From positions 1-64,000 of IMG/VR virus record IMGVR_UViG_3300000439_000015: a DNA stretch of 64,000 nt. One strand, given 5' to 3'. The DNA comes from a virus (taxonomy: Duplodnaviria; Caudoviricetes). The notes beneath the pieces were generated by a model. The model was not told the DNA's origin, did not search any database, and worked only from the letters and a program-made list of their open reading frames with translations. Below, piece by piece: positions 775 to 62,092 of the stretch (the stretch's first letter is position 1; each line of letters starts with the position of its first letter). The translations under genes were made by a program, and so were the position numbers.

Positions 775-1932
775 TTAGTCTAGTGGGGTTTCCAAAGTTG
801 GGTGGTCTATCTGGGGTTTAGTGGAATCCCCAATGAACTCGTGTGAGTAGGACATCCGTCGGCTGGGTTGCCAGCCAGAGAAACGCTCTACTCGCTGGTT
901 TTCAGCAACGCTGTCTTTGCGCTTGACGTGGTTCTTGGAAGTCGGCTTCCAAAGCGCAGAACCGTCTCTGTATTGGCCTAGTCGGGGGTGTGTGGTCTTG
1001 GTGAAAAAACGTCGCTCCATCAACGTCTGATTCGCACCTTGCCAGTCACTAAATCTTACACCCACTCCTAAACCTTGAAAGTCTGGCTTGACAACGAGGC
1101 GATGGCCTCGGTATGCGTTTTTCACTGTTCCACTTGGAAAAGAGAGAACTGCGTAGAAAGCGGCTGGGATTCCACCAATGACGGCGACGTAGCACTCGGA
1201 CGAACCGTTGAGTGAGCCATTGAGGTAGTGGTGTTCCACGAAATACTGCCACATGGCTGCTTCGACTTCGTATACCTCTGCCACCAAAGGTTCTCGATGA
1301 AGGCACTCCTTGGGCTGAAGGCAGTACATCCCTGCGTCGGTGTCAATAATCCAATCGGGCTGTAGCCATTCCAGCACGTCACGATGGCAAGTGGCGATGA
1401 CGATGTTGTGTACGGCGTTTGTACGGACGTACTTTTGGAACGTGTTGCTGGCGGCCTTGGCGACGGTGCGGTCTACGACTGAGGTGAACTCGTCAATGAC
1501 GGCGTTGGCGGCAATCTGACGAGCCAAGTCCACTCGGAACTTTTCACCAGTACTCAGAACGTTGTACGGCTTCGTCCACGTCGGCACGGCGTTCAATCCG
1601 ACGGCGTACATCAACGCTGCGCCTTGCTCTGCGGTGGTGAAGTGTGAGATGACTGAGCGTGTGTTGTCCCACTGCGGCTGTGCCATTTCACCAAACTCAG
1701 TTAGCAGTAACGTCTTGCCACTGCCAGAAGCGCCCACGATTACGCCGATGTTCCAATCCTCACCTACGTTGGGCTTAGCCCACGGGTAGAACCTCGTGCT
1801 GGTTGGGTCGTACTCGAACTGCTCGCACGCCTCGGTGGTGATGGGGTCTGATTCCAAATCAGATGTCAGCGGTGTGTTGGACTTTCCCAACGGCAGCCAC
1901 TCATCCGTGGTGGTGAAAAGCATTTCGTTCAT
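775..1932 (-). CDS. ABC-type ATPase fused to GNAT acetyltransferase
   Basis: Walker A GASGSGKT, signature-like LSTGEKFR, Walker B AVIDEF; C-terminal HRLVVKPDFQGLGVG acetyl-CoA motif. Confidence 0.8.
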   Translation of the reverse strand: MNEMLFTTTDEWLPLGKSNTPLTSDLESDPITTEACEQFEYDPTSTRFYPWAKPNVGEDWNIGVIVGASGSGKTLLLTEFGEMAQPQWDNTRSVISHFTTAEQGAALMYAVGLNAVPTWTKPYNVLSTGEKFRVDLARQIAANAVIDEFTSVVDRTVAKAASNTFQKYVRTNAVHNIVIATCHRDVLEWLQPDWIIDTDAGMYCLQPKECLHREPLVAEVYEVEAAMWQYFVEHHYLNGSLNGSSECYVAVIGGIPAAFYAVLSFPSGTVKNAYRGHRLVVKPDFQGLGVGVRFSDWQGANQTLMERRFFTKTTHPRLGQYRDGSALWKPTSKNHVKRKDSVAENQRVERFSGWQPSRRMSYSHEFIGDSTKPQIDHPTLETPLD

Positions 1933-2024
1933 TGCCTCTCCCCCGTCGAGGGATGGCGTGACATGCTGGCAAGACGTTCTTCTTCGTCGAACTCTTCGCC
2001 GTCGTATTCCACCAGAGTGAGCAT
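1929..2024 (-). CDS. Small acidic hypothetical protein (31 aa)
   Basis: MLTLVEYDGEEFDEEERLASMSRHPSTGERQ; stop overlaps the ABC-GNAT start (ATGA); TAGACT -10 lies 7 nt upstream. Confidence 0.45.
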   Translation of the reverse strand: MLTLVEYDGEEFDEEERLASMSRHPSTGERQ

Positions 2025-2029
2025 AAACC

Positions 2030-2407
2030 CTAGTCTAGCGGTGCGGATACCTCGGTGACGGTCATTTCCAATGCGTCCTTGCCAAACAACGGGGCTAGGA
2101 AGGTTAGTTTCACCACAATCTTGGCGTTGTCGTCAATCAGTACGCCTGCATCAACCAGTCCGTCAACCGCCGCCTTCACCTGAGGGAAGCATGCGCCCAC
2201 GTCTTGGCGGTACTTGGCGTTGAGGACGTAGGGCTGGATGGTGATTTCCACCTGCTCCATGCTTGGCATCATCGCCTCTTTTGCGAGGTCGCAAAATGCT
2301 GCTCGCCACTCCTTGACAATCTTGGCTCGCACCATGTGGTGAACCGTGCGCTCTTTGTTGAGCGTGAAGTCGGGACGTTCCTCGTAGGTGAGGACGTAAG
2401 CGTTCAT
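2030..2407 (-). CDS. rusA: RusA-like Holliday junction resolvase
   Basis: Start reassigned to ATG 2407 (ATGA-type overlap with the upstream gene); motif QDVGACFPQVKAAVDGLVDAGVLIDDNAKIV. Confidence 0.7.
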   Translation of the reverse strand: MNAYVLTYEERPDFTLNKERTVHHMVRAKIVKEWRAAFCDLAKEAMMPSMEQVEITIQPYVLNAKYRQDVGACFPQVKAAVDGLVDAGVLIDDNAKIVVKLTFLAPLFGKDALEMTVTEVSAPLD

Positions 2408-5569: not shown

Positions 5570-6122
5570 CAATGTAATCACTTTCGTCTGGTGATGCGAG
5601 TGCTTGCGTCTCAGACTTTACCACGGTTAGTGACGGGACGCTAACTGTGCCTGCGCCCAGTTGAAAACCGACGCTGGTGATTGTCTCTTTGTCGTACTTG
5701 TCCTTCAGTTCGTTGTACGCCTTCAGGAAGTGCGAACGCTCCACGCCGATGGTGTCGCTAAAGCACAGCGACGAGAACCCAACGGATTTCACTGCCCCCT
5801 CGATGAGGGGATGCGACCAACGGTTTCCATTTCGGTAGAACTCACGCCCGTGTTGACCGAGGCCGTCGTTCACCTCACGCCATGCCTCGAATGCGGTGGG
5901 GGCGAGGCTGCCGCTGACCTCTGCGCACTTTCTGCGGATGCCAGCGATGGTTGGGAACTTTTCCTCGGTCAACGCCCAGTCTTGGGCCGCACGGATGGCG
6001 ATTCCACCATCAACGTCGGCTAGGAGCATGCTCCACATCTCGATGGTGCCGTCGTTGGCCTTCCATGCTGGAAAGGCGCAGGCGAGGACGTAGCAGACGG
6101 TGGCGGTTTCTTGCTGGTTCAT
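5562..6122 (-). CDS. Helicase loader/inhibitor (SPP1 G39P-like)
   Basis: MNQQETATVCYVLACAFP...MWSMLLADVD...FPTIAGIR, directly downstream of the initiator. Confidence 0.7.
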   Translation of the reverse strand: MNQQETATVCYVLACAFPAWKANDGTIEMWSMLLADVDGGIAIRAAQDWALTEEKFPTIAGIRRKCAEVSGSLAPTAFEAWREVNDGLGQHGREFYRNGNRWSHPLIEGAVKSVGFSSLCFSDTIGVERSHFLKAYNELKDKYDKETITSVGFQLGAGTVSVPSLTVVKSETQALASPDESDYIDG

Positions 6123-6982
6123 TACAGGTGCCTCTTCATGAAGTTTTCGATGGCGGTCAGGGCGTTCCCAGCCTTGTTGGGTGCTGGGGCAACAGTCTCG
6201 CTGATTCCAGCGCCCGTGTCAAGGAAATCTTGGTAGCGGAGAGACGAGCCGAAGAACGTTGCGCCGTGGAGTGTGTACATCTCTGGTTCACCACGACGAC
6301 TGGCGGCGTAGTTCTCGGTGGCCTGTATCAAGCGCACCACGGTTTCACCAGCACGGATGCGAGCAACGAAGTTTTCCTGTGCCTTGCCTTTGTTGATTTT
6401 GCGTGGGTAGAGCCGCCAGACTTCCTCGAACTCTGCCGAGTACGGCTTCTCCTTCTTTGCCCGTTCGGATTTCACTGGCTCCAAAATGTGTCCGTCGCCC
6501 GATTTTTCGGGTGACGCAAAAGAACTATCTTCAGTACTTACTTCATTCAGTACTTGCTTTGATTCAGTACTTACTAAGTGGGGCACTTCACCGTCAACGG
6601 TGGAACCGTGCACGGTTGAGCCGTTGACGGTAAACCCGTCCACGGTTTCATCAGGGATTATGAGGATTTCACTGCCTATAGCGACCTCGTGCACCACCCG
6701 TTCGACGTGCGAGAACTGGCCTTTTTCGTCGTTGATGCGCTGTCCGTTGTTGGTGATGTAACCGAGGGATTCCAACTCGCTGAGGATGGTGAGGACTTTC
6801 TCCTTTTTAGCCTTGGGCGATTCCTTCACGAGGTGGTTCACCATGATGACCCAGTTGTCGGGCTTCGAGATGAGGTAGGCCAGCATGCCCTTGGCTTCCC
6901 ACGAAAGCCGAGCGTCGTTGAGGGTGACGTTGGGCATGATGGTGAAAGACTGGCGAGTGACGGACGGACTGCGACGTATCAC
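6122..6982 (-). CDS. Phage replication initiator (HTH N-terminus, DnaB2-like C-terminus)
   Basis: Start reassigned to GTG 6982 behind AAGGAG; FTIMPNVTLNDARLSWEAKGMLAYLISKPDNW and FEEVWRLYPRK motifs. Confidence 0.8.
   Translation of the reverse strand: MIRRSPSVTRQSFTIMPNVTLNDARLSWEAKGMLAYLISKPDNWVIMVNHLVKESPKAKKEKVLTILSELESLGYITNNGQRINDEKGQFSHVERVVHEVAIGSEILIIPDETVDGFTVNGSTVHGSTVDGEVPHLVSTESKQVLNEVSTEDSSFASPEKSGDGHILEPVKSERAKKEKPYSAEFEEVWRLYPRKINKGKAQENFVARIRAGETVVRLIQATENYAASRRGEPEMYTLHGATFFGSSLRYQDFLDTGAGISETVAPAPNKAGNALTAIENFMKRHL
6530..6650. repeat. Iteron-like repeats inside the initiator gene (candidate origin)
   Basis: TTCAGTACTT at 6530, 6546, 6563; four 15-bp units with a CCGTnnACGGT core at 6591, 6606, 6621, 6636. 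Confidence 0.6.
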
Positions 6983-7135
6983 GGCGATACTCCTTTTGCT
7001 ACGGGGTGGTGATGATACACGACCAGTGTCCAGTGCTGGTGCACGGTTTAGGGAGAAACTGTATGCGTTTTTTGCCAGACCACAAGATGTGGTGGAATGC
7101 GGTTGCGGCCCCCTACATGTTGTGTTTGCCAAGCA

Positions 7136-7151
7136 TGTGAAGTTTGTCACA
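7136..7151. promoter_or_regulatory. Perfect CRP-consensus palindrome upstream of the initiator
   Basis: TGTGA-AGTTTG-TCACA. Confidence 0.35.
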
Positions 7152-7266: not shown

Positions 7267-8181
7267 CTACTCAGGAACTACGTCCTCGGTTGGCTCTTCC
7301 TCTTCGAGGGTTGAGCACGAGGCGACCAACTCTTGGGCTTCCGACAAGCGAGCCTGCGTCAGGCTGTTCACCTTGGGCAAGCCAGCCTCGCCCCACGCCT
7401 TGGCGAGCGAACGGCGCTGGGCTGGGGTCAGGGTGCGAATGCGTCCGTCGAGAACGTCACGCTCCGTGTCGGTGATGATGGGGTCACCCGACTTCAACCA
7501 AGTGTTGAAAATCTGAGCCGCTTCGGTTCCCTTGTTCGGGGCGAACACCTTGTCTGCGAGAGCCTCGCAACGTGTCTTGCCGATGATGGTGCGGTGGTCA
7601 GTGTCCATGTCCACAACGAGGGTGAACTCGTACTCGATGCCGTCACGCTGAATGGGAGCCATGCCGACCTTGCGTGGAGCGGTGCGACCATTGTCGCCCT
7701 TCTCCAAGGTGTACTCCGTCTTGGAGCGCATCGTGCTGATGATGTGACCGTTGAAGTTGAGCAACGTGTCAACCATGCGCTGCTGAATCGGCGTGCCGGT
7801 TTTCCATCCGGCAAATCCGTTGCCGCCAGCCTTCGAGCCAGCCAAGTCCACAATCTCCAACAGGCCACCTGCGCCGTTGTAGAAGTGGGTGAGGCTGTCA
7901 ATCACAACGACTGCGTAGCCTTCGCCCTCGGCAGCCTTCAGCACTTCGACCAAGCGGTCAGGGTGGTAGGGGGCGGACATTGACAACGTGTCGAAGTCGA
8001 ATCGGTCTGCGTACAACTTGGCGCTGTCACGCTCCGTATCAATCACGGCAATCTTCCCACCGGCGGCAAGTTCCGTCGCCCACGCAAGTGCGCTGAACGT
8101 CTTACCCGAACCCGATGGGCCTGTCACTGCAATGCGAGCCTTGGCCTCAGCCTTAGTCGCCTTTGTAAATAATGAACTCAC
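7267..8181 (-). CDS. AAA_24 / Sak4-like ATPase (recombination)
   Basis: KARIAVTGPSGSGKTFSAL, VIDTERDSA, VVIDSLTH, QRDGIEYEFTLV. Confidence 0.8.
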   Translation of the reverse strand: MSSLFTKATKAEAKARIAVTGPSGSGKTFSALAWATELAAGGKIAVIDTERDSAKLYADRFDFDTLSMSAPYHPDRLVEVLKAAEGEGYAVVVIDSLTHFYNGAGGLLEIVDLAGSKAGGNGFAGWKTGTPIQQRMVDTLLNFNGHIISTMRSKTEYTLEKGDNGRTAPRKVGMAPIQRDGIEYEFTLVVDMDTDHRTIIGKTRCEALADKVFAPNKGTEAAQIFNTWLKSGDPIITDTERDVLDGRIRTLTPAQRRSLAKAWGEAGLPKVNSLTQARLSEAQELVASCSTLEEEEPTEDVVPE

Positions 8182-8260: not shown

Positions 8261-8295
8261 GTCATCACCACAAAAAAGTTTCTGAAGTTATTGAC

Positions 8296-8324
8296 TTGCG
8301 TTTGTCACTCCCATGCTGTACCAT
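8296..8324 (+). promoter_or_regulatory. TGTCAC-box promoter 1
   Basis: TTGCGT-17-TACCAT with TGTCACT ending 9 nt before the -10. Confidence 0.7.
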
Positions 8325-8366
8325 AGTTGAGTACCGATTTACCAACTGATTAGAAAGTGAGCAGAC

Positions 8367-8756
8367 ATGGCTGATACCCAGAGCCGTTACCAGTTCGGTG
8401 TACTCAACGCCTTCCGTGGCATTGGCACCCCCAGCATCTACGGCATCAACAACAACGGCATCATTACGGTTGAGGTTGAACTGAACGAGGCGAAGGCAAG
8501 CATCAATGGCTTCACCACGAAGGTGATGGCGAACGAAGCCATTGACCTCGCCCAGCGAGCCTGCGGTGCGTACTCGTTGGTTGACGAGGACAAGCAGTTC
8601 GACTTCGTGGTGACGTTCCTCTCGATGCTCGTCTCGAAGTCCTACGTCCTTCAGGACGAGCCTCAGGACGATGGTGCTGATGCCATCGCTGAGCAGAACT
8701 ACCTCGACGCTGACATCGAGGCGTGGCAGTTCGAGAAGGCAGGGGTGTCGCTCTAA
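8367..8756 (+). CDS. Hypothetical early protein (acidic C-terminus)
   Basis: 129 aa ORF with own promoter and RBS. Confidence 0.7.
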   Translation: MADTQSRYQFGVLNAFRGIGTPSIYGINNNGIITVEVELNEAKASINGFTTKVMANEAIDLAQRACGAYSLVDEDKQFDFVVTFLSMLVSKSYVLQDEPQDDGADAIAEQNYLDADIEAWQFEKAGVSL

Positions 8757-9124
8757 TGGGTCTGTCAATCTACAACACCATCACCGACCAGTGCGTCTGG
8801 TCATCGTCCTACAGTGGCTTCGGCAACTGGCGTGACGACCTTGCGAAGGCTGCCGACGTTGGCGACTGGCGCACGACTGGCAACCCGACTGCCGATGAGG
8901 TGATGGGTTTCTGGGCGAACGCTCCCAAAGACCCACTGTCGTTCGTGTTGCAGCACAGTGACTGCGACGGCTACATCATGCCCGACGACGCTGGGCGACT
9001 GGAGCGCCGCTTGCGTGGCCTGCTCGATGACCTTGCCGAGAGCGAGTGGTTGGACGCTACCAAGGGCTTCATCAAGGCGCTCGACGAGGCGTGCAACACC
9101 AAGGCAATCTTGGTTTTCAAGTAA
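8756..9124 (+). CDS. Hypothetical early protein
   Basis: ATG 8756 in a TAATG overlap; MGLSIYN...SYSGFGNWRDDLA...HSDCDGYI. Confidence 0.7.
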   Translation: MGLSIYNTITDQCVWSSSYSGFGNWRDDLAKAADVGDWRTTGNPTADEVMGFWANAPKDPLSFVLQHSDCDGYIMPDDAGRLERRLRGLLDDLAESEWLDATKGFIKALDEACNTKAILVFK

Positions 9125-9139
9125 ACCTGAAAGAAAGAC

Positions 9140-9169
9140 TTGACATGTGTCACAGCCCTGTGGCACAAT
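9140..9169 (+). promoter_or_regulatory. TGTCAC-box promoter 2
   Basis: TTGACA-18-CACAAT with TGTCACA at 9148-9154, followed by GGTTAGGTA. Confidence 0.75.
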
Positions 9170-9208
9170 GGTTAGGTACAGATTTATCCAACTGATTAGG
9201 AGAATGAA

Positions 9209-9754
9209 ATGTCGTTTGACCGTAGCGGACGTGGATTTAGTTTTGAGAAGCGTCGTGAGTTGGAGTACGAACTCCGTCACGAGGACGAGCAGGCGGACTT
9301 CGAGTTTGGTCACCGTGCCAGCGCCAAGTCCATTGCCTACGCCAAGTCGCTCATCGAGCGTGCCAAGAAGTTCCCACAGTTGAAGGAGCAGGCGGAGCGC
9401 CACGAGGCTTCCATCGCCAAGGACGGTGGCAGAAGTCGCCACAGCGTTCCCTACAACATCGCTACCGTCTCCTACGCCATCGCTGACCTGAAGGCGAGTT
9501 TGGACGCACTGTTCAAGTCGTTTGCTGAAGCGAAGGCGAGCCGTGAGAGCGAGCCTAAGGTCGAGGCTCCTGTCGTCAACGGCGAGGCTGCGACGACGAA
9601 GCAGATTGGATTCATGAACGCCCTGCTGAAGAAGAAGGACGTGCCTGCCGACCTGTTTGCTCAGGTCGAGGCTGCCAAGGCATCGAAGGCCAAGGCATCG
9701 AAGTTGATTGACGCACTCACCAAGTGCGCCGACAAGGTGGCAGTAAGCGCCTAG
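9209..9754 (+). CDS. Hypothetical early protein
   Basis: 181 aa, RBS AGGAG; C-terminal ATTKQIGFMNALL...KASKLIDAL module common in actinophages. Confidence 0.75.
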   Translation: MSFDRSGRGFSFEKRRELEYELRHEDEQADFEFGHRASAKSIAYAKSLIERAKKFPQLKEQAERHEASIAKDGGRSRHSVPYNIATVSYAIADLKASLDALFKSFAEAKASRESEPKVEAPVVNGEAATTKQIGFMNALLKKKDVPADLFAQVEAAKASKAKASKLIDALTKCADKVAVSA

Positions 9755-9784
9755 TTGCGCCGTGTCACACCCATGCAGTACCGT
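9755..9784 (+). promoter_or_regulatory. TGTCAC-box promoter 3
   Basis: TTGCGC-18-TACCGT with TGTCACA at 9763-9769. Confidence 0.65.
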
Positions 9785-9812
9785 AGTAATGCAGTATCCC
9801 AACTAAGAGAAA

Positions 9813-10469
9813 GTGTCCACTGACATGACGGCAGAAGCCACCGCAGTATCGGCAGTACCCGAAGTATCCGTATCCAACCTTGGTGAAGGCATGTCCCTCG
9901 CTGACTGGCTCATCACCGATGGGCAGCCCGACACGCTCGTCGGTTTCGAGAGCGCCGAAGGCGAGCAGGCTCAGGCTTACGCCATCACCACTGACGACGA
10001 GGCTCTGTGGGCCATGCGTCGCCTCGCACAGGCTCAGCGTCACGTTGACAAGGTGAAGGCGCAGGCGCAGGCTGAGATTGACCGCATCAACCGCTGGGTC
10101 GAAGCGTCCACCACTGGCAACGTCCGCCTCATCGAGAAGTTTGACCGCTTGCTGGGCGACTACCTCATGGTCGTCCGTGAGGACGAGGCCGATGGTCGCA
10201 AGAAGTTGGAGTTCCCCGATGGCACGGTGTCGAGCCGTATGACCCCACCAAAGGTCGCCGTAGAGGACGTAGAAGCCTTCCTCGCTTGGGCTGAAGCCAA
10301 CGGCAAGACCGAGTGGGTTCGTGTCAAGCGTGAGGCTGACGTAGCGACCATCAAGAAGGTCGTGGACTACAACGGCAACGATGTCATTGACCCCATCACT
10401 GGTGTCACCGTCGCTGGTCTGTCGCACACCGAGGGTGGCGTGTCCATCACGGTGAAGGTGACCGACTAG
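9813..10469 (+). CDS. Mu Gam-like host-nuclease inhibitor / DNA end-binding protein
   Basis: DDEALWAMRRLAQAQ...AEIDRINRW coiled coil, then KKLEFPDGTVSSR; start could be ATG 9825. Confidence 0.65.
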   Translation: MSTDMTAEATAVSAVPEVSVSNLGEGMSLADWLITDGQPDTLVGFESAEGEQAQAYAITTDDEALWAMRRLAQAQRHVDKVKAQAQAEIDRINRWVEASTTGNVRLIEKFDRLLGDYLMVVREDEADGRKKLEFPDGTVSSRMTPPKVAVEDVEAFLAWAEANGKTEWVRVKREADVATIKKVVDYNGNDVIDPITGVTVAGLSHTEGGVSITVKVTD

Positions 10470-10589
10470 CCAAAGTCGCCACGGTGGGTGGGGCGAACTA
10501 ACCAATCGGTTCGTTATCCGCTACGTCTCACCTGCCGTGCCGTTACTCTCATCATCATCCAAACGTGAGGATTGGGTGGTGATGAGATG

Positions 10590-10640
10590 AAAGAATCCCC
10601 TAGCCATTCCAAAACGGAGTGACTAGGGGATTCTTTGTTT
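10590..10640. terminator. Bidirectional terminator between the converging early and late units
   Basis: AAAGAATCCCCTAG/CTAGGGGATTCTTT stem with A- and T-tracts on either side. Confidence 0.8.
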
Positions 10641-10654
10641 GCTGCGAAGAAGCG

Positions 10655-10975
10655 TTACGCCTTAGGCGTGGTGCCTTCCGTGGGCGCTGCAACCGTTGCT
10701 GAAGTCACGCCGATGGAAGCGACAGGCTTGGTGGCCTTCACGCCGAGCAGCCGACCAAACTCAGGAACCTTCGTCTCCAAGTAGCGGATGATGATGAAGT
10801 AGCCCGACGACACGAAGGGGAACACACGCTGGTATGCCTCTGCCGTGGTCATGTGGAAGCCAGCCTTGGCTCCGAGGGTGATGAACCAACCAACAAGGAT
10901 TGGGGTGATGTAGCGGACGATTTCCAAACCGTATTCGTCTACTACGGCGTTACCGCTTGTCTCTGGTGTTGCCAT
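10655..10975 (-). CDS. Putative holin / small membrane protein
   Basis: Two hydrophobic segments; last gene of the late operon. Confidence 0.5.
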   Translation of the reverse strand: MATPETSGNAVVDEYGLEIVRYITPILVGWFITLGAKAGFHMTTAEAYQRVFPFVSSGYFIIIRYLETKVPEFGRLLGVKATKPVASIGVTSATVAAPTEGTTPKA

Positions 10976-11282
10976 TGCCTGTCTCCTTTGAGAGCATTAG
11001 TGGTAGGTGCACCTCGGCCTCTGTACGATGCCAGTCGAGATGCCTTTCCACCTTATCCTCAATGGTGTCGAACCGCAAGTCCATACGGGCGAAGTTTGTG
11101 TCAATGCGCTCAAATCGTAGCGTCTGTTGCTCAATCAGGTTGTCTATTTTGTGGTCAATCTTGTCTGAATCTTTGTGGTTCTGCTTGCCATTCCTGTGCG
11201 CTCCGTACCATGCGGCAGCAGCGGTCAACGTCGCTGGGATGGCGCTGATGAGGGCGGCAGTGACGTAGGGATTCGATGGCAT
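10950..11282 (-). CDS. Membrane-anchored coiled-coil protein (lysis-cassette type)
   Basis: N-terminal TM ALISAIPATLTAAAAWYG, then a coiled coil ending VERHLDWH. Confidence 0.6.
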   Translation of the reverse strand: MPSNPYVTAALISAIPATLTAAAAWYGAHRNGKQNHKDSDKIDHKIDNLIEQQTLRFERIDTNFARMDLRFDTIEDKVERHLDWHRTEAEVHLPLMLSKETGNGNTRDKR

Positions 11283-58884: not shown

Positions 58885-59029
58885 GGTACTTCTCTGGCAC
58901 TGGGCCTGTGTACGGAGCGCCGTTCAGGTCTGAGGTGAACGGGAAACGTGTCGAGCACTGCTGGCACATGACGTAGGTCTTAGCGCCTGCGTTCATCAGA
59001 ATCCACTTGTGGAAGGCGCAACTAGCCAT
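58877..59029 (-). CDS. Small Zn-ribbon protein (50 aa)
   Basis: MASCAFHKW...VMCQQCSTRF; manual translation; overlaps both neighbours. Confidence 0.55.
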   Translation of the reverse strand: MASCAFHKWILMNAGAKTYVMCQQCSTRFPFTSDLNGAPYTGPVPEKYRA

Positions 59030-59195
59030 GCTGAACCGTCATGACGTATTTGCTGGCGTTGGCGGTGAACGCCTGCGCCTCTTCCTTCGTGGCGAAGTCG
59101 GGCGATGTCATGACGGTGTAGTAGTAGCCATCACCACCTTGGTAGGTCTTGAAGAAGAACCCGTTGCCATTCCAAATCTCGACGACTTTACTCAT
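59022..59195 (-). CDS. Small hypothetical protein
   Basis: MSKVVEIWNGNGFFFKTY...FATKEEAQAF. Confidence 0.55.
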   Translation of the reverse strand: MSKVVEIWNGNGFFFKTYQGGDGYYYTVMTSPDFATKEEAQAFTANASKYVMTVQHG

Positions 59196-59398
59196 CAAAT
59201 AAACGCCTTCATGTCTTGCGCTTCTGCTTCCCATTGCTCTGGTGAACCGAGACGAACGACGTGCAAGCACACGTCCGTGCCGTTCTCCATGAGTTCTGAT
59301 TCGGTGTCGGTCAACTCCACGCCTGCGTGGGTTTCGCACACCTGCTGGGTGCAGAACTTGTTGTCAATGCCGTACTGAAGCCACTCATCAAAGGTCAT
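59195..59398 (-). CDS. Small hypothetical protein with Cys/His motif
   Basis: MTFDEWLQYGIDNKFC...VCETHAG...DVCLHVVRL. Confidence 0.65.
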   Translation of the reverse strand: MTFDEWLQYGIDNKFCTQQVCETHAGVELTDTESELMENGTDVCLHVVRLGSPEQWEAEAQDMKAFI

Positions 59399-59408
59399 GG
59401 CGTTCACC

Positions 59409-59942
59409 TTAGCAGCCGTCGGCGTTCCATTCTGGGTGGATTCCGCCATTACGGTTCCAATAGAAGGCGGCGACACGGAACTGGTCTGCGATGCTCGCAT
59501 CTTGGGCGTACTGGGCGGTGATGCCAAGGGCGTGAGCGCCGAACTGCCACGTTGGGGGCATGAACTGGAAGATGCCTGCTGCGCCTTCTGGGTTCACCTC
59601 ACGGTAGTTGTGGAAGTCCGTGGGGGTCGAGCGAGATTCACGCCACATGACGCAGGTGAAGGCCGCTCGGCTCGGTGGTGGGAGCAAGTCCGTGTAGCCA
59701 CCAGAGGGGGCTGTGTGGCTCGCTACGGGCTTTGGCTTGGCTTTGTGGTGAACCACAGGCTTGGCGACGTGAGCGTGCACCACGGGGCGGCTGTTGCCGT
59801 ACCAGAAGATGGTAATCATCTTGGGCGTAGTCGTCCGAGCGGCGAGGTGATAGGCCACCTTGGGCGCAGCGTGGAACGTTCCTACGACAAGGGAGACTAC
59901 GACTGTCAGTGCGAGGAAGCCACCTCGCACCGTGCCTAGCAC
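59409..59942 (-). CDS. Secreted/anchored Rpf-like lytic transglycosylase
   Basis: N-terminal hydrophobic helix, Pro/His/Lys linker, CVMWRES...AAGIFQFMPPTW...QDASIADQ...W...C lysozyme-like domain; start GTG 59942 inferred. Confidence 0.75.
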   Translation of the reverse strand: MLGTVRGGFLALTVVVSLVVGTFHAAPKVAYHLAARTTTPKMITIFWYGNSRPVVHAHVAKPVVHHKAKPKPVASHTAPSGGYTDLLPPPSRAAFTCVMWRESRSTPTDFHNYREVNPEGAAGIFQFMPPTWQFGAHALGITAQYAQDASIADQFRVAAFYWNRNGGIHPEWNADGC

Positions 59943-59995
59943 GAGCCTGCCTTGGTAGAGGGATAGAACGGTACCGCTATTGGGTTGCTGGACAC
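59936..59995 (-). CDS. Leader uORF (19 aa) overlapping the Rpf-like start
   Basis: AAGGAG-6 nt-GTG; MSSNPIAVPFYPSTKAGSC*; ends in GTGCTAG overlapping the Rpf GTG. Confidence 0.5.
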   Translation of the reverse strand: MSSNPIAVPFYPSTKAGSC

Positions 59996-60031
59996 AACGC
60001 ACTCCTTTGGTTGCCCATTGGGGGATGCACC

Positions 60032-60060
60032 AGTTTACCCGAATGTGACGGATAAGGCAA
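60032..60060 (-). promoter_or_regulatory. Promoter of the uORF-Rpf-def operon
   Basis: TTGCCT-17-TAAACT. Confidence 0.65.
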
Positions 60061-60137
60061 GTACTAAGCGATTTCCTTGCAAATAAAGGGTTTTGCCCAC
60101 ACCGTCGAGGTGATAGAAAAAAAACATGCAAAAAGAC

Positions 60138-60167
60138 TTGACAGATGTCACACGGGGGTGCCATACT
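60138..60167 (+). promoter_or_regulatory. TGTCAC-box promoter 5 (drives the large ncRNA)
   Basis: TTGACA-18-CATACT with TGTCACA at 60146-60152, then GGTTAGGTA as at 9169. Confidence 0.8.
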
Positions 60168-60173
60168 GGTTAG

Positions 60174-60504
60174 GTAAGAAAGCAGCAGTGCCGAGGTGCG
60201 CTTGTAAAGTCCCCACGAGAAAGTGGTCGAGCAAGCCGAAGGCCAGCCTGTGAGCCGTACCACCTGTTTGCGACACGGGCGCATTCAGTAAGGCCGTAGG
60301 GAGTTCGGAGCGAACTACGGCGAGGTGGGTACGGAACTCCTAGTGGGGGTGAGTGTTAGGCGTGAGGAAAAGCGCAAACCACCGAACCGCAAGGGGTAGG
60401 GTCGGGCGCTCGTTGGGAAACGGGTAGTCCGCCAGTGACATCAGTACGGAAAACCAAGGCTACCGAGTTAGAAGTCCCCTCAGCAAAGGCTGGGGGGATT
60501 TTCT
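60174..60504 (+). ncRNA. Putative large structured ncRNA (~330 nt), family unassigned
   Basis: Promoter plus terminator, no plausible ORF; nested long-range stems and GNRA loops (see findings). Confidence 0.7.
60472..60504 (+). terminator. Terminator of the large ncRNA (abuts the polyprotein stop)
   Basis: AAGTCCCCTCAGC-AAAG-GCTGGGGGGATT-TTCT. Confidence 0.7.
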
Positions 60505-62092
60505 ATTTGTAGACCTCGTTCAGCACTTGATAGTGGATTTGGCTTGCCTTGTCGTCGTCGCCTGCCTCGTGCGCCTCTTGCTCTTGGGCGAGCAGTTTGG
60601 CAGCCTTGTCGCTGAGGTGTTCTTCCTTGGGCTTCGTTGCCTTTTGGAACGGGAGCAGGGCGTACTTGGCCCAGATTTCGCCAGCGGTTTTGGAAACGTC
60701 GCCTTTTTGGACTGGGCTTTCCCAAACAACTGCGTCGGGGTTCCAGATTGAGTAGTTCGTGTGGTCTTTGGGCTGCGAAATGTCTTGTTGTGAAACTAGG
60801 GTCATCTTGCCATCTACGTTTGCGGTCTTTCCATCCTCTTCGTTGGTTAGGCCGCTTGTAAATAACTTCGCTCCATCTCTAAGTTTCCCACGGAGTACGG
60901 TTCCGCCCTCACCAGCGTAGGCACGAGCGACTTCTTCGCTATCGGTTGCGTAAACTGCTTTTCCGTCTAGACCGATTTCTTTCTTGCCGCTTAGGGTATC
61001 CGAGACTGCTTGCGAACTTCTTACGCCTCGATAAACGGTTACTCCACTTGCGTCAGTCGTTTCCCACTGATTTCCGTGAAAGACGTGGCCCTGAACGTCG
61101 CCCTTTTGGACGTGCCGCTCTACCATGGACTTCGCCCACGAGTAGCCAGCATCACCACCCCACGCATCCCACGCCACACGTCCGTGCGACGGGTATCCGT
61201 GTTCACCCTGACGGAAGCCTTCTGCCTTCTTGTCGGGCTGGTGACGGTCAAAATACGCCTTCATCCGCTTCAGAGTGTCCAGTGAAATCTGGTGCCCGTT
61301 ACCGAGGTCTGACGCACGCTTGCGCCCGACGTTGGTGAACCCTGAGCCAGCCTTGCCGTCGGCAATCCATTCCAATGCTCGCTTAGCGGCCTCTTGTACC
61401 CCCTGCGGCGGAGTGAACGTATCCTTCTTCACCGCAAAGTGGGCAGCGAGGGTTTGGAACACGTCAATAAGGCGGTTCAAGTTGTCAATCATCTGGGCGT
61501 ACTTGTCGTCCATGCCGAGTTGGTGAAACTCATCCTGTAGCGCCTCTAGACGGGGCCGTAAGCCTGCCAGCGTCTCCAAGGTCAGTCCTGCGTTCCAAAG
61601 GGCTGTGGCGACCTCTGGGGTGGCTTCACGGACACGAAAGTTGCAGAGAGCGTGGTCAATGCCGACTATTCCACCTTGGGCAAACATCAGGTTCTTGGGA
61701 CGACGGTCTGCGTTGGCGGTGATGTAGTCGAACAGGCGTAGGTTTCTGCCTTGGTTATCGTTTGGGTAGCAGTCCTCGCTGCCGAGTTCCAATCCTGACT
61801 TGCCGTCAATGTACGGCATAATCACCATCTTGGCATCGGTTCCCACAAAGCGGCAGTCACGGACGGGGGCGTTCATCGCCTCTCCGACACGGGCGGCGAG
61901 ATACTCCTGAGCGGCGAGTATTTCAGCACGGTACAAACGACCCGTCTTGTTGCCGTGCCAGTCCTTCATGTGCTTCTCGACCCCTTCGGAGCCATCAGCA
62001 AAGCGAACACGGAACATTCCGTCGTTCTGGTTGCCCTTCACAAACATGGGTTCACGAGACACGATGTCCGTGCTGGTGAACGGCACGAACAT
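60503..62092 (-). CDS. Multidomain GNQ-tag protein: HipA/PI3K-like kinase, conserved phage head domain, ART-like domain
   Basis: QEYLAARVG...FDYITANADRRPKN...GIDH; TPPQGVQEAAKRAL...GRVAWDAWGGDAG; VQKGDVQGHVFHGNQW then VYRG...GKAVYATDS...ARAYA...YSIWNPDAV. Confidence 0.75.
   Translation of the reverse strand: MFVPFTSTDIVSREPMFVKGNQNDGMFRVRFADGSEGVEKHMKDWHGNKTGRLYRAEILAAQEYLAARVGEAMNAPVRDCRFVGTDAKMVIMPYIDGKSGLELGSEDCYPNDNQGRNLRLFDYITANADRRPKNLMFAQGGIVGIDHALCNFRVREATPEVATALWNAGLTLETLAGLRPRLEALQDEFHQLGMDDKYAQMIDNLNRLIDVFQTLAAHFAVKKDTFTPPQGVQEAAKRALEWIADGKAGSGFTNVGRKRASDLGNGHQISLDTLKRMKAYFDRHQPDKKAEGFRQGEHGYPSHGRVAWDAWGGDAGYSWAKSMVERHVQKGDVQGHVFHGNQWETTDASGVTVYRGVRSSQAVSDTLSGKKEIGLDGKAVYATDSEEVARAYAGEGGTVLRGKLRDGAKLFTSGLTNEEDGKTANVDGKMTLVSQQDISQPKDHTNYSIWNPDAVVWESPVQKGDVSKTAGEIWAKYALLPFQKATKPKEEHLSDKAAKLLAQEQEAHEAGDDDKASQIHYQVLNEVYK

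Follow-up and report, generated by a model that had tools for sequence, protein, structure and literature searches.

An RNA gene set antisense into a head-gene operon

The window, a 64,000-nt stretch of DNA analysed here as a whole, comes from an 85-kb IMG/VR contig (~68% complete) of a siphophage with an HK97-type capsid protein. Judged by that protein, its closest relatives in culture are phages of Arthrobacter and Microbacterium (48-52% identity); no tyrosine integrase was found in the 85-kb record. A gap in the minus-strand head-gene operon of this phage holds, at 60138-60504, a transcription unit in antisense orientation whose neighbouring genes all lie on the minus strand. At the 3’ end of the unit, gene 60503..62092, encoding a 529-aa protein, is convergent to it. 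At the 5’ end, a 291-aa minus-strand ORF (59409..60284) overlaps the unit solely through a spurious N-terminal extension: its homologues in two related loci, L041 and L043, align from residue 115, which places the start at ~59942, and its frame is split in a third, L033.

Several smaller features surround these genes. Homologues support a GTG start near 59942 for the 291-aa ORF, and this start is preceded by a 19-codon upstream ORF that begins at 59995 behind a strong AAAGGAG ribosome-binding site. Back to back with the promoter of the RNA lies a weak candidate for a promoter on the minus strand (TTGCCT-17-TAAACT, ~60062-60034). For the 529-aa protein, the tblastn match in three loci (L007, L012 and L013) spans ~2.2 kb within which table 11 yields short ORFs only, a pattern that frameshifts, a different gene organisation or assembly errors might explain.

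An earlier note on this DNA had described a strong promoter and a strong terminator with no coding potential between them, and each of these elements was recovered. The promoter, of the sigma-70 type (TTGACA-18-CATACT with a TG before the -10), occupies 60138-60167 on the + strand, and no other promoter-like site was found beside it in 59000-61500. It belongs to a larger block (60132..60176, + strand) that comprises the -35 TTGACA at 60138-43, a TGTCAC just downstream, the extended -10 TG-c-CATACT at 60159-67 and, at or after the start site, a conserved GGTTAGGTA at 60168-76. The terminator is intrinsic (60471..60502, + strand), with a 14-bp stem, an AAAG loop and a U run, and it is unidirectional, the U run being present on the + strand alone. 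Between the two, ATG is absent from the sense strand, and no ORF there exceeds 24 aa, the longest opening with GTG. What lies at 60138-60504 is a non-coding RNA gene, complete in itself and equipped with a promoter and a terminator of its own; its RNA of ~330 nt (60168..60504, + strand) is predicted to start near 60173-60175 and to end in the T run after the terminator.

The promoter represents a phage-specific class, ACTTGACA followed by TGTCAC just downstream, an extended -10, and GGTTAGGTA opening the transcript, and the same class precedes every homologue of the window RNA. The resemblance to the promoter of gene 9209 that had been pointed out previously is genuine, with 78% identity over 45 nt and a common block that includes GGTTAGGTA after the -10. 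That second promoter (9134..9178, +) lies upstream of gene 9209..9754, and a third (8294..8330, +) lies upstream of ORF 8367..8756. Together they head the sole + strand protein-coding cluster of the window (8294-11248), which includes a Mu Gam-like end-protection gene (9813..10469); end protection of this kind is a typical early function. It is reasonable to call the promoter early-type because its class drives a cluster with a Gam-like gene, and the proposal that the RNA would be transcribed early gains some support from this arrangement. A strict version of the promoter pattern gave no matches in viral contigs, the pattern being too specific.

The 8294 and 9134 promoters also have a 5’ UTR word, GATTTAnCCAACTGATTAG, in common, and their cluster adjoins minus-strand genes for a Sak4/RecA-like ATPase (7267..8181) and a replication initiator (6122..7150). 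Gene 9209 itself shares a ~55-aa C-terminal domain (51% identity) with a family of 180-224-aa proteins (window 9209-9754 (+); L066:6745-7416; L124:4075-4626; L116:1862-2395) that had no Pfam or PDB match. In three other contexts a member lies less than 3 kb from the RNA; in L066/L118 a back-to-back promoter of the same class transcribes the gene divergently. As the family is also found in a complete genome that lacks the RNA, we claim no link between the two as co-occurring partners.

The predicted fold is a chain of local domains

Measured against shuffled sequence, the whole RNA has a fold z-score of -2.46 on the + strand versus -0.97 on the minus strand; only the + strand folds better than the shuffles. 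The first domain of the MFE fold is the F domain, a long irregular hairpin at 60182..60251 with pair probabilities of 0.82-0.99. Its outer stems pair 60182-86/60246-51, 60190-92/60241-44, 60195-97/60235-37 and 60200-04/60228-32; it contains an asymmetric loop, UAAAGUCC, and is tipped by CCAC-GAGAAA-GUGG at 60213-26. The H2/H5 domain follows at 60255..60334 (pair probability 0.83-0.93), where H2 pairs CCGUAC at 60255-60 with GUACGG at 60329-34 and H5 pairs CACCU at 60261-65 with AGGUG at 60323-27, together enclosing a three-way junction with a hairpin at 60293-99/60315-21. The D3 domain (60336..60397), present only in the window and in the related locus L151, is predicted from the MFE fold to pair 60336-41/60392-97, 60343-46/60387-90, 60348-54/60378-83 and 60360-63/60372-75. 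Next comes an H4-like hairpin, H4’ (60400..60433), which carries the family’s most conserved word, GGAAACGGGnAnUCCG, and combines a stem at 60408-14/60419-25 (GGGA loop, probability 0.99) with a base at 60400-07/60427-33. The 3’ tail, CAGUACGGAAAACCAAGGCUACCGAGUUAGAAG (60434..60470), is shared with L033 alone; L151 has a complete T-core in its place.

This picture departs in part from the nested long-range architecture that the earlier note had drawn. All of the complementary words from which that architecture was assembled do occur at the positions given for them, and two of the five helices hold: both 60255-65/60323-34, which is equivalent to the covarying family helices H2 and H5, and 60294-99/60315-20, the hairpin inside the H2/H5 domain, are in the MFE fold with pair probabilities of 0.83-0.93. 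The three long-range helices are unsupported. Each has a pair probability of 0, and forcing them costs +8.8 kcal/mol (60197-203/60370-376), +10.4 kcal/mol (60211-216/60343-348) and +7.1 kcal/mol (60423-429/60458-464). The relatives agree: L033 keeps the 5’ strands at 60197 and 60211 unchanged though their 3’ partners are replaced, the pair A60215-U60344 of the second helix becomes A-C in L151, and the partner strand of the third is absent from L151. Two GNRA-capped hairpins had also been proposed. One, CGTT-GGGA-AACG, stands as the tip of a 6-7 bp stem (60408-14/60419-25), whereas the other, CC-GCAA-GG, is ambiguous: its loop becomes GUAA in L151, a change that also fits the alternative pairing 60343-46/60387-90. 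On this modelling, a chain of local domains describes the window RNA better than a set of nested long-range helices does.

Homologues share a covarying core

A search of eighty loci around capsid-gene relatives, complemented by scans for conserved words, identified ~15 distinct variants of the RNA in roughly 8 lineages, all on IMG/VR or JGI freshwater metagenome contigs. Each variant has the same promoter class and a terminator, save for an L059 copy without an obvious terminator. Their lengths range over 157 (L058 and L065), 271 (L066), 303 (L033), 337 (window), 347, 385, 428, 452 (L151) and 603 nt (L041). The most conserved word, CCTARGAAACGGGAANTCC, was found at 9 viral loci and at 12 metagenome loci, three of the latter by chance. 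A scan of 185,579 prokaryote genomes with the core word gave 4 matches, none of which scores with the covariance model described below beyond an 18-nt fragment at 13 bits (L135); we read these four as chance, and that word revealed no cellular homologue or prophage copy.

Most members have a common core consisting of H1, a GCAAGCC linker, H2 topped by H5, and an H3-H4 arm. H1 is a hairpin that follows UAAAG and is mostly GNRA-looped, and H2 closes a domain capped by H5 (CACCn/nGGUG). The H3-H4 arm is long, follows AAG and ends in the loop UAGGAAAC; it includes two invariant internal loops, AGCGA opposite AAGUAG and UUAG opposite AAGU.

We built a covariance model of this core, R1, from 8 sequences and then used it to align 11. 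Within that alignment 93.1% of cells pair, and both sides change in 16 of 35 pairs, compared with 7.3 +/- 1.5 in shuffles, none of 500 of which reached the observed value; the alignment is fitted to R1 and its sequences are related, which inflates shuffle tests of this type. When the partners were slid by 1-3 columns, pairing fell to 29-45%, with 2-6 two-sided pairs. H2 and H5 (helices 2 and 3 of the alignment) covary across the family, H2 occurring as CUUGAC/GUCGGG, CCUGAA/UUCAGG, CCCAAG/CUUGGG and CCUAGA/UCUAGG in relatives and as CCGUAC/GUACGG in the window. The pairing is strand-specific: the opposite strand would pair only 76.3% of cells because G-U pairs make up 18.5% of the paired cells, in agreement with the strand on which promoter and terminator place the RNA. 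The helices are under selection on the + strand.

Some members contain further modules. Module M, ~200 nt closed by UCCGAU/AUCGGG, is inserted, in part of the family, between F and the core (L041:5280-5620 (-), L116:5050-5250 (+) and L059:6880-7100 (-)) and has no Rfam match; in L041 it stands beside another module that is shared with L124. The L059 copy (L059:6745-7112 (-)) has H1 and H2/H5 and lacks the H3/H4 arm as well as an obvious terminator, and it may be truncated or decaying.

One locus occurs in three domain combinations

With R1 the window RNA reaches only 4 bits, and its relationship to the family appears through two mosaic relatives at the same genomic site, L033 (54.6 bits, E 1.6e-10) and L151 (141.5 bits), each of which has 220-270 nt in common with the window at 93-99% identity. 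The L033 phage is a close relative whose flanking proteins are 94-99% identical to those of the window. Its RNA is identical to the window RNA over the first ~220 nt and the last ~90 nt and has a canonical H3/H4 arm where the window has 60336-60444. The L151 RNA, which occupies the window’s genomic site and is followed by the same downstream sequence, carries the first ~270 nt of the window RNA at ~95% identity and then a complete T-core that replaces the window’s tail. The resulting domain orders are F-H2/H5-D3-H4’-tail in the window, F-H2/H5-H3/H4-tail in L033 and F-H2/H5-D3-H4’-T-core in L151. One locus thus occurs in three domain combinations, and whole domains have been swapped, at helix borders, between close relatives.

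The F domain provides a second connection. A 27-nt block within it is nearly identical in the group formed by L066, L041 and L043, and its outer stem differs from that of the L066 group by compensatory changes (GCUUG/CGAGC against CCUGAUG/CGUCGGG). The L033 and L151 mosaics and the F domain together suggest that the window RNA, itself unscored by R1, belongs to the mosaic family.

The window and L151 are similar enough for individual substitutions to be followed. All eight substitutions that fall in MFE helices keep pairing: G60182>A in the F domain, C60295>U in the H2/H5 domain, U60425>C in the H4-like hairpin, and five in D3. Four of the five other substitutions and both one-base indels are at unpaired positions; one of these indels is A60342, a single D3 base of the window that is deleted in L151 and predicted to be unpaired. 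The fifth of these other substitutions, at 60173, has its MFE partner at 60464, in the tail that L151 lacks.

These comparisons bear on whether the unit has a function at all. GC-rich DNA folds well by chance, and the fold z-score of the RNA is only modestly negative, as might be expected of a decaying remnant, of chance structure between promoter-like and terminator-like sites, or of a missed small protein gene. We consider any such functionless or coding origin very unlikely. The unit has been kept with promoter and terminator in ~15 variants, its covariation is well above controls and the helix substitutions relative to L151 all preserve pairing; as for a small protein, no ORF is conserved and the window sense strand offers no ATG.

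The RNA is an optional cassette found at several genomic sites

R1 matches 8 of 43 related records, and only one of the six records that are at least 90% complete. The distribution is clearest at the junction of two head-region genes, A (90 aa) and B (272 aa), which lie 20-64 nt apart in ~40 loci that have no RNA; where an RNA is present at the junction, the gap is 265-1137 nt. Elsewhere in the family the position differs. In the window, L033 and L151 the RNA lies ~6 kb away from the A-B junction, L041 and L043 have it at a third site, and in L143 it lies 50 kb or more from the capsid gene. The RNA cassette is optional and occupies three or more genomic sites. With its own promoter and terminator, its position between operon genes and its presence or absence among close relatives, the unit has the attributes of a phage moron, and this optional, multi-site behaviour argues that the RNA works independently of its neighbours.

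Across ~60 loci the A-B junction is an insertion hot spot for antisense-oriented morons, and the RNA is found there in five lineages. Loci L085-L087 have a small protein gene, ~100 aa, at the junction.

At every site the RNA is antisense to the structural genes. Such a constant orientation would be expected of a cis-antisense or transcriptional-interference element that controls the minus-strand late operon reading through the gap, for instance if RNase III cut the duplex lying between the upstream gene for the 529-aa protein and the downstream gene starting at ~59942. The one-strand terminator is also in keeping with this, as it implies that late transcripts probably read through the gap and are fully complementary to the RNA. 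We nevertheless regard cis-antisense control as unlikely: the RNA stops before the convergent gene and overlaps no coding sequence, the same RNA core lies beside different genes at three or more sites, and its helices show covariation and rely on G-U pairs, features that would not arise if antisense pairing were all that was selected for.

The family lies outside known RNA classes

We compared the RNA with Rfam 15, whose 4227 models include GOLLD, ROOL, pRNA, 6S, RNase P, tmRNA, SRP, riboswitches and ribozymes. At the gathering score the whole window had no matches, and at E<=10 the interval 59900-60700 returned sub-threshold terminator noise only. Neither L041 nor six homologous loci matched any family. 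The earlier note had been unable to place the RNA in a family, and that holds; the mosaic family is not in Rfam 15. Its core reading, a free-standing, independently transcribed structured non-coding RNA outside known families, is likewise borne out by homologues that keep the promoter and terminator and covary.

Searches aimed at particular classes were also negative. ARAGORN identified no tRNA or tmRNA genes in the window. Tandem repeats of the kind that mark a ToxI-like type III toxin-antitoxin RNA were absent from 59900-60700, and the genes adjoining the RNA differ between loci, where a ToxI-like RNA would be expected to have a toxin neighbour. RVT_1, sought as the sign of a retron, had no match in the 85-kb record, which is ~68% complete. 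RNase P had been considered on a likeness seen by eye, with AAAGUCC towards the 5’ end and GGCUAC towards the 3’ end; this candidate was dropped, as even at E<=10 none of the RNase P models gives a score and GGCUAC is missing in L151 and in all T-type members. We also discarded a CsrA-type sponge, as GGA words are not enriched (by hand count ~7 seen versus ~9 expected). Among cultured phages, blastn found no similar DNA, and R1 did not find the RNA in Arthrobacter phages Ottawa and Kovu or in Microbacterium phage ValentiniPuff.

A structured RNA that ends in a terminator might be a cis-regulatory leader or riboswitch with the terminator as its expression platform, and in L124 a same-strand gene does follow the RNA. 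A riboswitch would precede a same-strand gene without its own promoter, and the arrangement at these loci makes one exceedingly improbable: the next gene is convergent in the window and likewise in most relatives, a separate promoter stands between the RNA and the following gene in L124, and no Rfam riboswitch matched.

The closest general parallels are GOLLD and ROOL, stand-alone structured phage-associated RNAs without an assigned function that were first seen in lake or other metagenome data and that combine a conserved core with variable peripheral domains. A tRNA gene nearby is part of the context in which GOLLD is found, and the L124 relative has one on the same strand (L124:874-946 (-), 75 bits) ~0.8 kb downstream of the RNA; a small ORF with another promoter of the RNA’s class lies between the two. 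Neither the GOLLD nor the ROOL model matches, however, and the freshwater phage family is smaller (157-603 nt) and confined to one clade.

Phage morons provide a second comparison. Like them, the RNA unit is an optional promoter-gene-terminator cassette between late genes, and in L086 a small protein-coding moron with a similar promoter fills the same A-B slot (L086:7068-7501 (-)). Morons are known to include prophage-encoded small RNAs such as DicF and IsrK, and the known moron RNAs are mostly short base-pairing sRNAs; the window RNA differs from these in being long, multi-domain and under selection for structure. The pRNA of phi29 is also a phage-encoded structured RNA from an early-type promoter, and the window RNA lies inside the head gene region. 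However, the Rfam pRNA model does not match, and the window phage group consists of siphophages with an HK97-type capsid protein, not of phi29-like podophages. Most close relatives, among them 5 of 6 near-complete genomes, lack the RNA, which rules it out as an indispensable component of packaging. 6S RNA and the actinobacterial Ms1, both of which bind RNA polymerase, a central host enzyme, are structured RNAs of similar size that are abundant and act in trans; carried by a phage, an RNA of that sort could plausibly serve takeover. Again Rfam gave no 6S match, and the window RNA is modelled as a chain of local domains, not as a rod with a central bubble.

Orphan structured RNAs on phages are known as a general kind; what is new is a mosaic anatomy that swaps domains, and the behaviour of a moron. 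To our knowledge few large structured phage RNAs have been recognised, and almost none has a function. A survey of the same data source for the same kind of object predicted 10,006 unnamed candidate structured RNAs from IMG/VR, and the present family may be among them; as far as its description of the candidates goes, the survey assigns neither anatomy nor function to single families of this type (Fremin, Bhatt and Kyrpides 2023, PMC10690425).

A possible trans-acting role early in infection

We lean, by a modest degree beyond even, towards the view that the unit is an autonomous RNA moron of a new mosaic family that acts early and in trans on a host or phage partner, for takeover or counter-defence. 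A cassette made up of a host-type promoter, a structured RNA and an intrinsic terminator would have been set antisense into the late structural operon in a clade of uncultured freshwater siphophages, the nearest cultured relatives of which infect Arthrobacter and Microbacterium. Host RNA polymerase would transcribe the RNA early, together with the Gam-like cluster, whose promoters belong to the same class. Through invariant loops and internal loops (the GGAAACGGGnAnUCCG hairpin, AAGUAG/AGCGA and UAAAG) the RNA might then bind a host or phage protein or RNA and so act in trans; we infer such binding from the invariance of the loops and the mobility of the cassette. Because most relatives do without the RNA, its role would lie in host takeover or counter-defence and not in virion building.

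The same domains could instead serve RNA-RNA architecture or catalysis, making the unit a self-assembling ornate RNA or a ribozyme. Modular peripheral domains, GNRA loops on several hairpins and the association with phages are shared with such RNAs, and GOLLD, ROOL and OLE are described as forming RNA-only multimers (bioRxiv 10.1101/2024.12.08.627333). We think it quite unlikely that the domains serve architecture or catalysis in place of protein binding, as no likeness to any Rfam ribozyme or large RNA was found, the smallest members measure only 157 nt and no cleavage-site signature was seen. An extension of the trans-acting reading incorporates assembly in another way: a mosaic phage RNA class of exchangeable modules might form, early in infection, a ribonucleoprotein or higher-order RNA assembly that disables or redirects a host function. 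On this view some copies would be tandem core-like units (L151). We put this forward tentatively, as a possibility we would not expect to prevail; if true, the family would be an RNA counterpart of protein anti-defence and takeover morons, one that evolves by domain shuffling.

Although the family is rare and its hosts are uncultured, it constitutes a natural dissection series that runs from a 157-nt minimal core through forms of 271-452 nt to one of 603 nt, set apart from one another by entire domains. The three domain combinations at one locus in nearly identical phages are suited to structure probing, cryo-EM and partner pull-downs, and the family as a whole is useful for studying RNA evolution by module exchange. 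In the late operons of phages a moron slot can be taken by an RNA gene and not solely by a protein gene, and protein-centred annotation would overlook such RNA genes.

Accessory units in related phages

Other small units accompany the RNA or occupy comparable positions in related phages. In L143, a 108-kb phage, two further small units, each with a terminator and a promoter of the RNA’s class, flank the RNA on its own strand (1340-1470 (-) and 1960-2130 (-)); one has a ~40-codon ORF, and the other, ~100 nt with a 12-codon ORF only, may be a second small RNA. In the Arthrobacter phages Ottawa (L152) and Kovu (L154), the closest relatives in culture, accessory genes interrupt the stretch upstream of the capsid gene. 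Those annotated there in both phages are RNA ligase and VRR-Nuc, to which Kovu adds nuclease, ribonuclease and endonuclease VII genes, with a capsid maturation protease gene before them. These genes parallel the accessory-gene region that holds the RNA in the window phage.
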